From positions 32,001 to 96,000 of the forward strand of contig JBHLLF010000002.1 of assembly GCA_048885865.1 (NCBI GenBank): a stretch of DNA of 64,000 nt. The letters run 5' to 3'. Below the pieces are notes generated by a model. The model was not told the origin of the DNA. It did no database searches and saw only the letters and a list, made by a program, of their open reading frames with translations. This stretch comes from Candidatus Hermodarchaeota archaeon (GTDB lineage Archaea; Asgardarchaeota; Thorarchaeia; Thorarchaeales; Thorarchaeaceae). A program made the translations under genes and the position numbers. This document shows positions 3,729 through 5,915 of the stretch, one piece after another (the stretch's first letter is position 1; the number at the start of each line of letters is the position of its first letter).

Positions 3729-5915
3729 TTGGGACGGCTTGGAGTTGCTAATCAATTGAAGCGCTACTTTACCCTGATGTGTACAATTGGTTTCATCCTT
3801 CTAGTCTTTGCTCCTGTATGCGTCAGTGGGACGACAATTAGCCAAAGCCCTGTTATCAACCTCGATAGCGTTTTCGTGGATGTGGTAGTTCTTCCAAATG
3901 GCCGAATAAATGTCACATATTGGATAACCATATCCGTAATTGAGAATTCCCTAGGCGGAATCGATTTAGCGGGGATTCAAGAAACCACGATTTATGATCC
4001 CGATCGTGCGTACGCTGAGGTGGACGGAAACCGCTACAATCTGGTAGTTGGAGATCTCTCGAATGGCTATGCTCTAGACTGGACTCCCCGGACTCAAGCT
4101 GGAGAAACAGTCACAGTAGTATTCGGGTATTTCAGTACAAACAGAGTTCTAGAGATGACAACTGGAACATTTACTCTTGAGGGCTCTGGTCTGCAAGTTA
4201 CCGGCGATCTGGCTGTTTTCAATTGGGCTCCAGTACAGTGGAGTTTGCCTCTTGATTATGAGAATGTGAGAGTCATCTATCCTATTGAAATGCAGGCTTC
4301 ATGGATTACGGGGGAAGGTGGAATCACCTCAGAGGGTGCAGATTATGCGGGCTATGTTGTGGATAGCCGTCAGAGGCTTGAAGACAACTTTGGCAGCTTC
4401 TTTGCCTTCGATGAGGAGAACCTTCTTGCCTATCCCTCGTCGGCTTCCGCTGACCCTCGATACTTCAGCGTTAGTCTAGGACATTCCAATTTAGGCTCCT
4501 ATGACCACTTCCGTGTCTTCCACTATACCAATTGGAGCTTCTATGCTCCGTATCTCGAACCGGGCGCTCTAGACTACAACACTCAAGAGAATATCAATGC
4601 AGATGCGAACACGGAATTCTCAGTTAATGTAGATGTATTCAATATCGGAGACGCCCCACTCAATGATGTTTCCATAACCCTCTCTGTACCAGACAACCTC
4701 ACTCTGACTTCTGGCCAGATTTCTACCTACATTGGAACACTCGATGGTGGAGAGAACTCTCATTTGACATATCACTTCATCCCCGATAACTTGCCAGAGA
4801 TACTTCCCCTCACGTTTCAAATCTCATCATCCAGTCTCAATACAAGTGACTGGATTACATTTACAGTCAACATCTATGTGCGTGAAGTCATTCCTCCCTT
4901 GATTCCGCCGAATCTACTGATTTGGGGATCTGCTGGAATAGCAGCCATAGCTGTTGTTTCTTTTGGCTATCGTCGAATAATGGGTGGATATGGAGCAACA
5001 TGGGAAGTTGATGAAACAACCAAGGTATATCAGAGCCCGGAGATTGCCATACAGACCTTCGGCACACCCGGAACTGTCGCAGATCTCGATCCTGTCGAGA
5101 GCGCGTTCTTTGTCAATACAAATCGCAAGAAACTGGTGTCAATGATTCTCATGTCCTGTGTGAAGAAGGGTGCAGTAAGGGTGATATCAACAGATCCCTT
5201 ACGCCTTTCGGATACGGGCCTGAGGTTCGAGGACCTTACTTACTATGAGCAAATGCTTGTCGACTCCATTAGCGACAATGAGCTTGACCCTGACAAGATT
5301 GATGACATGCTGGAAGAACTAGCTGAGAAGGTTCAGGAGAAATCTTGGGATGCCGACTTCGAGGCTACAAAAGACCACCATGAGGAGATGGTCGATGGAG
5401 CTTGGGAACAACTCGAAAGCGATCCCACACTTGATGGACGCGTAGATTACTATTTCAATCGAAGGTACCACGACACCTGGGCATGGTACTGGTTCTATAT
5501 GCATCCTCATCATAGCCGAAGAATTAGCCGAGTTTTCACACCCCCCGGCGGGACGATTGCCCCACCAAGGATACCAGATTGGTTTGGTCAGATTGCTGAT
5601 GCTGCTGGACATTCATTTGGCGAAGTTGGACGTGTGGTTGGAGATGTAGCTTCAACCACGGGCCAAATCATGACGAATGTGACAAACACCATTGGAGATG
5701 TCCTTTCGGGAGTTGGTAACATCATCCGAGAACCGCTGAAACCTATCTTGGAGGAGACCAGTCGTTGTGTGTCTCATGATGCCTGCCACTCTGCATGCGT
5801 TTCGCACGACGCCTGTCATAGTGCCTGTCACAGCGCCTGCCATAGTGCTTGTGTATGCCATAGTGCCTGTCATAGTGCATGCCACAGTGCATGTGTTTCT
5901 GGAGGATTTAGATAA
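3729..5915 (+). CDS. Single-pass membrane protein (DUF2207-like ectodomain plus Ig-like/CARDB module) with a C-terminal Cys/His (CHSA)n tail; candidate radical SAM substrate
   Basis: Signal-like N-terminus, beta-rich ectodomain, TM [19 protein letters not shown] followed by RR, C-terminus [10 protein letters not shown]...CVSGGFR. Confidence 0.8.
   Translation: [728 protein letters not shown]
5766..5912 (+). repeat. Coding repeat: 7x CHSA plus 2x CVSHDA (degenerate 12-bp units)
   Basis: Units such as tgccactctgca, tgtcatagtgcc and tgtcacagcgcc vary only synonymously. Confidence 0.95.

Follow-up and report, generated by a model that had tools for sequence, protein, structure and literature searches.

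The window analysed here is a stretch of 64,000 nucleotides from a Candidatus Hermodarchaeota archaeon (contig JBHLLF010000002.1). One of its genes encodes a large membrane protein that ends with a repetitive Cys- and His-rich tail, and a gene encoding a radical SAM enzyme lies nearby on the opposite strand (Table 1). This raises two questions: is the tail a functional element of the protein or a by-product of repeat expansion and, if it is functional, could it be the substrate of this enzyme?

Table 1. Location of the tail gene, its domains and the neighbouring genes in the window
Feature	Residues	Position (nt)	Strand	Remarks
Zn-ribbon protein, 237 aa, 2 TM helices and winged-helix-like region		1..560	+	window holds the C-terminal 185 residues
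PqqD(RRE)-radical SAM-SPASM enzyme, 473 aa		1749..3170	-	divergent from tail gene; proposed tail maturase (Pfam, linkage, phylogeny)
Conserved ORF between enzyme and tail genes, 133 aa		3271..3672	+	Thorarchaeota clade only
Tail gene, 728-aa DUF2207-like single-pass membrane protein		3729..5915	+	ORF, AlphaFold2, fold matches, distant homologue
N-terminal signal/anchor helix of tail protein	4-31
Ribophorin-I-like beta-sandwich ectodomain of tail protein	37-271	3837-4541	+
MG/Ig-like domain of tail protein	277-388	4557-4892	+
TM helix of tail protein	394-418	4908-4982	+
Cytoplasmic helix/strand domain of tail protein	~445-564	5061-5420	+
Low-confidence linker of tail protein	565-679	5421-5765		Trp/His patch and amphipathic Gly-rich stretch
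Cys/His tail and stop codon	680-728	5766..5915	+	11 Cys, 9 His; proposed core-like substrate region
Calcineurin-like metallophosphoesterase, 255 aa		5915..6682	+	ATG overlaps TAA of tail gene (TAATG)
Cytoplasmic protein with HEYEH (HExxH) motif, 407 aa		7159..8382	+	syntenic, Thorarchaeota clade only

The tail and the protein that carries it

In the translated ORF, codon 680 (TGT) starts at position 5766 and the TAA stop codon occupies positions 5913-5915. The order of units described in the first-pass annotation agrees with this translation, a 16-residue start being followed by 33 residues that read (CHSA)3-CV-(CHSA)3-CVSGGFR, i.e. 49 residues in all. The mixed codons that it reported for the seven CHSA units were also recovered (TGC/TGT, CAC/CAT, TCT/AGT/AGC and GCA/GCC/GCT). 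In the 3.58-Mb genome, the DNA pattern encoding CHxACHxAC is confined to the tail gene, with four overlapping matches and none for the reversed control; the tail is therefore beyond chance. The GG pair near the end had been compared to a processing motif. We rejected it as a cleavage signal since it sits at the very end, only 2 residues ahead of the C-terminus, and lacks conservation, bacterial and Bathyarchaeial homologues having SRF, SSF, GRF or SGF instead.

The AlphaFold2 model of the tail protein has a mean pLDDT of 73.5, with values below 50 for residues 565-728; it places helices at residues 684-704 and 711-723 of the tail, with a pLDDT of only 30-45. This model and the positive-inside rule suggest that the C-terminal part is cytoplasmic: a signal/anchor helix and an ectodomain precede a single TM helix directly followed by RR, which would put the tail in the cytoplasm, within reach of an Fe-S enzyme devoid of signal peptide. 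A juxtamembrane segment (residues ~434-460) is conserved; between the cytoplasmic domain and the tail, conservation is poor outside the Thorarchaeota clade. The DUF2207 Pfam models (PF09972 and PF20990) gave no match with the tail protein, even at E-values up to 1. However, PF09972 is carried by a distant homologue, P0009 (phmmer E 6.6e-29), and the tail protein is therefore related to DUF2207 at the superfamily level only; a spirochaete homologue scores 19.8 bits with DUF2207_C (cut-off 33). Neither this protein nor its radical SAM enzyme is covered by a curated family of Pfam or NCBIfam.

Selection on the tail

The tail of the window was compared with its Thorarchaeota orthologues, using 33 distinct sequences and 51 aligned positions. 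The amino acid is unchanged at 46 of the 51 positions, while each position is encoded by two to six different codons. Relative to the window tail, a median of 28 codons out of 51 differ, for a median of 0 and a maximum of 1 amino-acid difference. Synonymous sites are saturated (mean pS 0.91), and pN reaches 0.19 across the 230 codons upstream of the tail. Since invariant serines alternate between TCN and AGY codons among orthologues, and these switches inflate dN in the tail, codon and amino-acid counts were preferred to the Nei-Gojobori dN. The proposal of the first-pass annotation that the repeat is old and under purifying selection is thus borne out, and the selection is very strong, 46 positions being invariant despite saturated synonymous sites. 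Furthermore, orthologues lacking the tail or carrying a drifting repeat were looked for, and every complete orthologue was found to retain the tail.

The tail is periodic, and Tandem Repeats Finder detects 12-, 24- and 42-bp periods in its DNA. These are only degenerate (66% matches for 12 bp; 86% for 42 bp, with 1.9 copies), as expected when mixed codons encode identical peptide units. In the wider tail family, the number of units ranges from 2 to more than 12, which indicates expansion and contraction over long time scales. However, unit number and order are constant in the 33 orthologues, which gives no hint of slippage within this clade, and the amino acids are invariant while the codons are scrambled, both serine codon families being found at the same invariant site. 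The conclusion already drawn from the codons of the window, that the repeat does not result from slippage, thus stands, and the chance that the tail is a low-complexity by-product with no specific function is practically nil, this reading being refuted by the orthologues.

A radical SAM enzyme inherited with the tail

The enzyme encoded upstream of the tail gene comprises three Pfam domains, all above cut-off: PqqD (40.1 bits, cut-off 23.4, residues 37-93), Radical_SAM (97.7 bits) and SPASM (28.7 bits, cut-off 21.5). All 34 homologues compared retain the cysteines of the CX3CX2C motif (C132, C136 and C139) and seven cysteines of the SPASM region (C346, C360, C378, C415, C418, C424 and C428, including a CX2CX5CX3C motif). 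Its best relatives of solved structure are SkfB, PqqE and CteB. No NCBIfam model attains its cut-off with this enzyme, and the best matches, none near cut-off, are scattered over AhbD, NirJ, PqqE, MftC, sactisynthases and ranthisynthases. A 'CXXX-repeat' radical SAM family has reportedly been defined by Haft; its model is absent among the NCBIfam matches listed for this enzyme and for the CA-type enzymes described below, and none of these matches attains its cut-off.

A pattern search recovered at least 544 related stretches in species-representative genomes. These pattern-matched relatives belong to Asgard and Bathyarchaeial archaea and to bacteria of several phyla that inhabit anoxic sediments and digesters. 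Chloroflexota, Spirochaetota, Armatimonadota and Bathyarchaeia have the same irregular tail on host proteins that are 26-31% identical overall: CV[S]HDA-CHSA occurs twice and is followed by CHSA blocks that CV interrupts. A sister tail type, CACACAGCACACAGGGR (CA type, (CA)n), is devoid of His and has its own PqqD-radical SAM-SPASM enzymes, the genes of which flank it in two Asgard genomes and in 55-58 of 80 metagenome loci; the PqqD domain was also found in a CA-type enzyme. Only Cys, Ala and Gly are common to CHxA and CA tails, and the Ala at i+3 would be the sole acceptor position that they share.

The tail gene and the enzyme gene are inherited together across phyla. An orthologue of the window enzyme is present in 69 of the 80 tail loci fetched, and, of genomes devoid of an adjacent copy, four out of four carry an orthologue elsewhere (53-59% identical). 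Among 41 relatives, the presence of both genes mostly coincides. In bacteria, the enzyme gene lies directly downstream of the tail gene on the same strand, with gaps of ~4-33 nt; hence a small precursor gene cannot fit between them. No other Cys-rich or small candidate substrate was found in the operons. Synteny within the Thorarchaeota clade is not independent evidence, and the weight of the linkage therefore rests on the bacterial and metagenomic loci.

The phylogeny of the enzymes points in the same direction. The 65 radical SAM enzymes linked to CHxA tails group with five orthologues unlinked from a tail gene in a single clade (SH-like support 100, branch length 1.0), which adjoins the CA-linked enzymes. 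One genome harbors both systems, with a separate enzyme for each. Enzyme clade therefore matches tail type. One relative (G023/L042) has a truncated enzyme gene, cut at about residue 238, and a tail gene that has lost its TM segment in frame, the tail being still perfect; these losses may be recent or may stem from the assembly.

A membrane Zn-ribbon protein as a third conserved component

The gene of the Zn-ribbon protein starts 154 nt before the window (full ORF L186:2847-3560) and occupies the same place in 13 Thorarchaeota loci. Its product is related to the Zn-ribbon protein encoded in bacterial CHxA operons (hhalign 97.5%, E 7.5e-12), and 66 of 80 CA-type loci have a gene for a membrane Zn-ribbon protein immediately upstream. 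This protein is thus the third conserved part of the system. The three genes, found in anaerobic archaea and bacteria, encode the membrane Zn-ribbon protein, the ribophorin-I-like/DUF2207-like protein with its Cys-repeat tail and the RRE-radical SAM-SPASM enzyme. We give an even chance to the idea that they form a widespread, as yet unnamed system, in which the dedicated radical SAM/SPASM enzyme would write a ladder of crosslinks into the cytoplasmic tail of an entire single-pass membrane protein, with a role in metal handling or transmembrane signalling.

Proposed modification of the tail in place

Since the tail is nearly invariant under DNA drift and its gene is inherited with its own radical SAM enzyme, it is probably modified in place, on the whole membrane protein. 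We infer the following enzyme-substrate relation, chemistry and physiological role. The tail would be a built-in substrate region, similar to a core peptide, at the cytoplasmic C-terminus of the DUF2207-like protein. The PqqD(RRE)-radical SAM-SPASM enzyme would dock on the cytoplasmic part of this protein and work along the tail, converting Cys thiols to intramolecular thioether links (sactionine or ranthionine type) with nearby residues, each at a cost of 2 Da. This would yield a rigid rod that resists proteases. In the CHxA type, it would present nine imidazoles, which could serve to bind metal or a partner, for instance the co-conserved membrane Zn-ribbon protein. We lean towards this reading, with thioether crosslinks as the most likely chemistry. 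Serial Cys-to-carbon crosslinks, one of the roles envisaged in the first-pass annotation, thus gain strong indirect support from the co-inheritance of the enzyme across phyla and in a phylogeny that tracks tail type.

Some observations fit less well with modification in place. RRE-radical SAM enzymes normally take short leader-core peptides; no docking motif for the enzyme was identified in the tail protein. The predicted complex of the enzyme with residues 600-728, a construct that excludes the conserved segment ~434-460, gave an ipSAE of 0.00 in both runs, which counts neither for nor against the proposal. Thioethers alone leave the invariant His unexplained. A protein of ~400 aa always accompanies the bacterial enzyme, and a profile search of this genome for it found nothing. 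Lastly, the relative with the truncated enzyme gene keeps a perfect tail.

The tail could instead bind metal unmodified at the inner face of the membrane, as a metallothionein- or metallochaperone-like element or as a ligand of Fe-S or other clusters, the radical SAM enzyme acting elsewhere. The abundance and regular spacing of Cys and His in the 49 residues and the invariance of His in the CHxA type would suit this role. Moreover, CrpABC, a system discussed below, is upregulated on pyrite (PMC13692751), and bufferins made by MNIO enzymes chelate copper (PMC12452194). However, Ala and Ser vary no more than Cys and His in the 33 orthologues, an invariance that would exceed what metal binding alone needs. 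Furthermore, Cys residues are spaced as CxxxC, with one CxC and no CxxC, the usual units of metallothioneins. The His-free CA tails keep the same enzyme partnership, the enzyme bears a peptide-recognition domain (PqqD/RRE) and its clade follows tail type, in operons that offer it no other candidate substrate. An unmodified, stand-alone metallothionein-like tail thus fails to explain the enzyme linkage, the invariant Ala and the His-free tails, and we consider it fairly unlikely. Metal binding as such, also proposed in the first-pass annotation, is possible, perhaps by the modified product.

The enzyme may also modify the tail by another chemistry than thioether formation: formylglycine-like or dehydro Cys, C-C or C-N links of His, epimerisation or a cofactor scaffold. 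SPASM enzymes catalyse many reactions, the NCBIfam matches of this enzyme are spread over several families, and no curated family predicts its reaction. The invariant His also suggests a chemical role. However, with only Cys, Ala and Gly common to both tail types, His falls outside any reaction that they share. In addition, all the characterised RRE-SPASM enzymes with a Cys-rich substrate that we know of (AlbA, SkfB, CteB, PapB and QhpD, as well as CrpC, PMC13692751) form thioethers. Such a chemistry therefore seems quite unlikely to us.

It is improbable that the tail is a true RiPP core, cut off after modification by a neighbouring HExxH protein and released free. HExxH proteins are encoded nearby in Thorarchaeota (7159-8382) and in Anaerolineae (InhA-like), and Arg directly precedes the first Cys of the tail in Thorarchaeota (SR|C). 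However, these two HExxH proteins are unrelated and each is limited to one clade, no protease common to the operons of different clades and no conserved transporter or exporter in bacterial operons having been found. In addition, the 680-aa carrier, with its ectodomain and TM helix, is itself conserved, and the terminal GG pair is not.

Comparison with known systems

The nearest published case, which belongs to a different family, is found in Methanococcus voltae, where the RRE-radical SAM-SPASM enzyme CrpC installs ranthionine links on CrpA, a 28.8-kDa Cys-rich protein (Dieter et al. 2026, PMC13692751). CrpA is soluble, with an N-terminal leader-like domain and 17-residue repeats containing C-x-x-Q/D; its product has an unknown, possibly metal-related function (PMC13692751). 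As in our locus, an archaeal RRE-radical SAM-SPASM gene is associated with a gene for a Cys-rich repeat protein, not for a short peptide. CrpC puts its thioethers in the C-terminal repeats of CrpA. However, the window enzyme reaches only 67.4 bits with the model of the CrpC family (TIGR04463, rSAM_vs_C_rich; cut-off 525). Furthermore, unlike CrpA as described in the publication, the carrier is here a membrane protein of 728 aa that has an ectodomain and a 4-residue C-H-S-A repeat, and the conserved third part is a membrane Zn-ribbon protein. Another radical SAM-SPASM enzyme, QhpD, makes several Cys-to-carbon thioethers in QhpC, the gamma subunit of quinohemoprotein amine dehydrogenase, which remains part of a functional protein. 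However, QhpC is small and soluble; it contains Cys-to-Asp/Glu links and a quinone cofactor, and has no repeat, membrane anchor or homology to the tail protein. QhpD/QhpC was cited as a parallel to CrpA/CrpC (PMC13692751).

The combination of PqqD/RRE, radical SAM and SPASM domains with a Cys-rich substrate is also that of sactipeptide and ranthipeptide systems (SkfB/SkfA, AlbA/SboA, CteB/CteA, PapB/freyrasin and SCIFF). In freyrasin, a short repeated Cys motif is modified serially. Whereas in these systems a short leader-core peptide is cleaved and exported, the 'core' here ends a large conserved membrane protein, with no conserved protease or exporter, and the NCBIfam models of their maturases remain below cut-off.

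Some membrane proteins of family TIGR04222 carry Gly/Ser tails interspersed with Cys, predicted to be periplasmic, and have been proposed as whole-protein substrates of MNIO (DUF692) enzymes, the genes of which are often adjacent, a third of the genomes being without MNIO (PMC12452194). As in our system, a membrane protein ends with a low-complexity tail with conserved Cys and a gene for a Cys-modifying enzyme lies nearby. However, MNIO are oxygen-dependent non-haem iron enzymes, whereas radical SAM enzymes are oxygen-sensitive, and the linkage is tighter here. TIGR04222 did not match the window protein (best homologue, from Chloroflexota, 16.1 bits for a cut-off of 43), and no MNIO gene was found among the annotated neighbours of the tail loci. 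In the His-Xaa-Ser system, dedicated radical SAM/SPASM maturases (HxsB/HxsC) were likewise predicted in silico to act on a repeat protein (HxsA), but the H-x-S repeat has no Cys and the window enzyme scores 112.5 bits with HxsC (TIGR03977) for a cut-off of 267.9. To our knowledge, typical DUF2207 tails are Gly-rich, Cys-free and unlinked to radical SAM genes. The architecture of the tail protein, with its signal, beta-rich ectodomain, TM helix, cytoplasmic domain and low-complexity tail, is that of DUF2207 proteins such as SMU.243 of Streptococcus mutans (PMC10457818).

In the library searched, we found no publication on these tails, their enzymes or such chemistry. Radical SAM 'RiPP' enzymes are usually regarded as makers of small secreted peptides, and we know of very few proven modifications of whole proteins by such enzymes: QhpC and, more recently (September 2026), CrpA. 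In the present case, the tail that goes with a distinct clade of enzymes belongs to a large membrane protein. That 49 residues of low complexity are kept almost unchanged from one domain of life to another implies a structure both precise and important. If the tail is modified as we suggest, the product would be a new permanent post-translational structure, lined with His for CHxA tails and bare for CA tails, with a role other than that of a secreted natural product. Elucidating this chemistry would extend the repertoire of protein modifications and assign a function to some members of the large DUF2207-like superfamily.

Other neighbouring genes

Whether two of the genes located downstream of the tail gene belong to the system is uncertain. 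The metallophosphoesterase gene is syntenic in the Thorarchaeota clade only (17 loci of the second set, with one weak 25% match outside). The 407-aa HEYEH protein, possibly a protease, is unrelated to the InhA-like HExxH protease of the Anaerolineae operons. Neither it nor the 133-aa protein is related to the ~400-aa bacterial partner, as judged by BLASTP and profile comparison. No known family matched the 133-aa ORF, the leads from the protein atlas being all sub-threshold. Its plus-strand frame (3271-3672) is nevertheless conserved, with 65-97% identity versus 31-92% on the minus strand; the minus-strand ORF 3211-3549, being much less conserved, is therefore probably not a gene.

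Conservation of the Cys/His tail

The 728-codon reading frame of a membrane protein ends, from the Cys680 codon (5766-5768) to the TAA stop (5913-5915), in a tail of 49 residues, [16 protein letters not shown](CHSA)3-CV-(CHSA)3-CVSGGFR, with 11 Cys and 9 His. The first-pass annotation had described the unit order, the identical CHSA units and their mixed codons, and all these facts were correct on recheck. The seven CHSA units use TGC/TGT, CAC/CAT, TCT/AGT/AGC and GCA/GCC/GCT. Since identical peptide units are written in mixed codons, Tandem Repeats Finder detects only degenerate periods in the tail DNA (12 bp at 66% matches; 42 bp x 1.9 copies at 86%). 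The CHxACHxAC DNA pattern is confined to the tail gene in the 3.58-Mb genome, and the reversed control gave 0 matches.

The source is an Asgard archaeon of Thorarchaeota type. The tail gene is present in 21 of the 41 related genomes searched, and a one-genome-per-species scan supplied further copies. The last 51 codons were compared among 33 distinct orthologues; over the whole protein, these share 56-95% identity. Forty-six of the 51 positions are constant in amino acid, and at each position 2 to 6 codons occur. Relative to the window, a median of 28 of the 51 codons are changed, for a median of 0 and a maximum of 1 amino-acid changes. Constant serines alternate between the TCN and AGY families, a change that is impossible by one silent step. 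Synonymous sites of the tail are saturated (mean pS 0.91); pN is 0.19 in the 230 codons directly upstream. Unit number and order are the same in all 33 orthologues. Therefore, the repeat is old and under about the strongest purifying selection possible for a protein segment, and its upkeep by slippage is ruled out. This agrees with the first-pass annotation, which had proposed an old, selected repeat and had named a missing or drifting tail in orthologues as evidence to the contrary: the tail is near-constant in all 33.

Furthermore, a full-library phmmer search and a species-genome scan, the latter with at least 544 confirmed relatives, place the tail among DUF2207-like membrane proteins, a broad family. 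Two tail types can be distinguished: ...(CH[SD]A)n-CVSGGxx / CVS[RS]F (CHxA type) and ...CACACA(G)CACACAGGGR (CA type, devoid of His). The tails of Chloroflexota, Spirochaetota, Armatimonadota and Bathyarchaeia have the sequence [39 protein letters not shown][RS]F and repeat the irregularities of Thorarchaeota, namely two CV(S)HDA-CHSA units and CHSA blocks split by CV. Outside the tail, these carriers are merely 26-31% identical. At the sequence level, the tail thus behaves as a conserved module rather than as a free repeat.

A radical SAM enzyme associated with the tail

A PqqD(RRE)-radical SAM-SPASM enzyme is encoded divergently from the tail gene, at a distance of 560 bp on its upstream side. 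Its CX3CX2C motif and seven cysteines of the SPASM region are invariant, and SkfB, PqqE and CteB are the best relatives with a solved structure. None of the NCBIfam family models approaches its cut-off on this protein; for instance, the CrpC model TIGR04463 scores 67 bits for a cut-off of 525.

An orthologue of the enzyme is found in 69 of the 80 loci fetched via the tail pattern, bacterial ones being 41-50% identical to the window enzyme across the full length. In bacteria and Bathyarchaeia, the enzyme gene is on the same strand as the tail gene, before or after it, with gaps of about 4-33 nt, and the operon encodes the tail protein, the radical SAM enzyme, a protein of about 400 aa and a Zn-ribbon membrane protein. 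Four genomes whose tail gene has no adjoining enzyme gene were searched whole; all four have an orthologue elsewhere (53-59% identical), which still adjoins the gene of the 400-aa protein. The latter, encoded directly after the radical SAM gene (loci L046-L100, alignment A2), is a constant companion of the CHxA-type enzyme in bacteria and Bathyarchaeia, also when this enzyme is unlinked from the tail gene. It matches no Pfam or NCBIfam family and has no conserved Cys.

Among the 41 relatives, tail gene and enzyme gene largely co-occur, the exceptions being incomplete or scaffolded assemblies. One scaffolded locus (L105, G004:C1:1226000-1240000) carries a tail gene whose N-terminal third and upstream neighbors differ from those elsewhere, and an orthologue of the enzyme was not found; a mis-join is likely since the locus contains runs of N. 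In another relative (L042, G023:C14), the radical SAM protein (about 5791-6489, minus strand) ends at about residue 238 and is directly followed by an alanine-racemase-like gene. The tail gene of this locus (7980-9959, plus strand) has lost residues 381-448, including the TM helix, in frame, and its Cys/His tail is intact. Either the two genes have recently decayed together or the assembly is at fault.

PqqD-radical SAM-SPASM genes also flank tails of the CA type, both in two further Asgard genomes and in 55-58 of 80 metagenome loci. Of these 80 loci, 66 have the gene of a small membrane Zn-ribbon protein directly upstream. In a tree of 152 radical SAM enzymes from CHxA and CA loci, which is not statistical proof since relatives share labels, all 65 CHxA-adjoining enzymes and five tail-unlinked orthologues form one clade (SH-like support 100, branch length 1.0) adjoining the CA-linked enzymes. 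One enzyme clade per tail type is the pattern that an enzyme-substrate pair would predict.

One bacterial genome (G044; L188, L191) harbors both systems, each with a separate radical SAM enzyme; compared with the Anaerolineales query, these enzymes are 59% and 35% identical. In many CA-type metagenome loci, a second radical SAM paralogue is encoded that is divergent and falls into a clade of its own in the tree, with 25 members; several loci have two tandem tail-protein genes (examples of either: L113, L170, L116, L124, L127, L130, L147, L149).

Putative modification of the tail

Most economically, the tail would be a built-in substrate, whose cysteines the enzyme would modify in the cytoplasm. 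We lean slightly towards the tail being the substrate of this enzyme, probably acquiring thioethers. To our knowledge, every characterised RRE-SPASM enzyme with a Cys-rich substrate is thioether-forming. These include AlbA, SkfB, CteB, PapB and QhpD. CrpC is a further example (PMC13692751). By analogy, serial thioether formation would be the likely chemistry. Cys, Ala and Gly are common to both tail types. The Ala three residues after each Cys (i+3) occurs in C-H-S-A as well as in C-A-C-A and is hence a candidate acceptor. The product would then rely on the invariant His of the CHxA type for its function, for instance metal binding, which fits the metal connections of CrpABC (PMC13692751) and of the MNIO-made bufferins (PMC12452194).

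Several points speak against modification by this enzyme: no docking motif was identified, the 400-aa partner was not found in the genome of the window, and L042 pairs a shortened enzyme with an intact tail. That the tail binds metals without any modification is unlikely, and its modification by some other chemistry is slightly less probable still. It is very unlikely that the tail is a RiPP core released by cleavage; the terminal GG, initially proposed as a processing motif, is not retained in bacterial and Bathyarchaeial homologues, and this idea was therefore removed. A slippage product has a negligible probability given the fixed units and the constant residues with scrambled codons in the 33 orthologues.

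If the tail is indeed the substrate of this enzyme, the system is of a known kind, in which a Cys-rich protein is the target of a radical SAM-SPASM enzyme, as for QhpD/QhpC and CrpC/CrpA, the latter published in September 2026 (PMC13692751). It differs by its enzyme family, by its accessory Zn-ribbon protein and by its substrate, since the carrier is a membrane protein that has an ectodomain and its repeat unit is 4 residues long. The system is not in Pfam or NCBIfam, and no description was found in the literature searched. The closest conceptual parallel, a Cys-tailed membrane protein with a Cys-modifying enzyme, is the proposed MNIO-TIGR04222 pairing, which is set apart by its oxygen-dependent enzyme and periplasmic tail (PMC12452194).

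Neighboring genes and carrier protein

Features of the locus and of the carrier protein (carrier domains from the AlphaFold2 model)
Feature	Position	Strand	Remarks
Zn-ribbon protein, C-terminal end	1-560		ORF runs off window start; full protein 237 aa
PqqD/RRE + radical SAM + SPASM enzyme, 473 aa	1749-3170	-	domains all above Pfam cut-offs
133-aa ORF	3271-3672	+	syntenic in Thorarchaeota clade only
Tail gene (carrier), 728 codons	3729-5915	+	tail, residues 680-728
Signal/anchor helix	carrier N-terminus		predicted
Beta-sandwich ectodomain	residues 37-271; 3837-4541	+	predicted
Ig/MG-like domain	residues 277-388		predicted
Single TM helix, then RR	residues 394-418		predicted
Compact helix/strand cytoplasmic domain	residues about 445-564		predicted
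C-terminal region	last ~165 residues		pLDDT 30-45; aromatic/His patch, amphipathic Gly-rich stretch, tail
Metallophosphoesterase	start overlaps tail-gene stop (TAATG, 5913-5917)		syntenic in Thorarchaeota clade only
407-aa HEYEH (HExxH) protein, no known family	7159-8382	+	syntenic in Thorarchaeota clade only

The Zn-ribbon protein, in which the C-terminal Zn ribbon is accompanied by two TM helices and a winged-helix-like region, keeps its position in 13 Thorarchaeota loci. Its profile matches that of the Zn-ribbon protein of bacterial CHxA operons (hhalign 97.5%, E 7.5e-12, 124 columns), and by these comparisons it qualifies as the third conserved part of the system. The membership of the 133-aa ORF, the metallophosphoesterase and the HEYEH protein is uncertain because their synteny is confined to the Thorarchaeota clade. 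The TAATG overlap suggests translational coupling of the metallophosphoesterase with the tail gene. In 21 Thorarchaeota loci, the HEYEH protein is encoded at the same position downstream of the tail gene; the equivalent end of Anaerolineae operons has the gene of an unrelated InhA-like HExxH protease. Opposite-strand ORFs overlap at 3211-3672, and the plus-strand one (133 aa) is likely the gene since it is better conserved in Thorarchaeota (65-97% identity versus 31-92%); it has no detectable relatives beyond this clade.

None of the Pfam and NCBIfam models reaches its cut-off on the carrier, whose DUF2207 link runs via distant homologues. In the AlphaFold2 model (36 homologues, mean pLDDT 73.5), the tail helices are unreliable (pLDDT 30-45) and speak neither for nor against the single helical face that the first-pass annotation had proposed for Cys and His. 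The positive-inside rule and the carrier layout would place the tail in the cytoplasm. Residues 277-388 resemble MG/Ig-like domains (Z about 12.5). With the predicted ectodomain as query, the best structural match is the luminal domain of Ost1/ribophorin I from the eukaryotic oligosaccharyltransferase (7oci_A; Z 16.2, rmsd 3.2 A, 189 residues, 10% identity), followed by M1 aminopeptidase N-domains (Z about 12.9). Since the family is also bacterial, this likeness is a fold relation and not by itself a eukaryotic signature.
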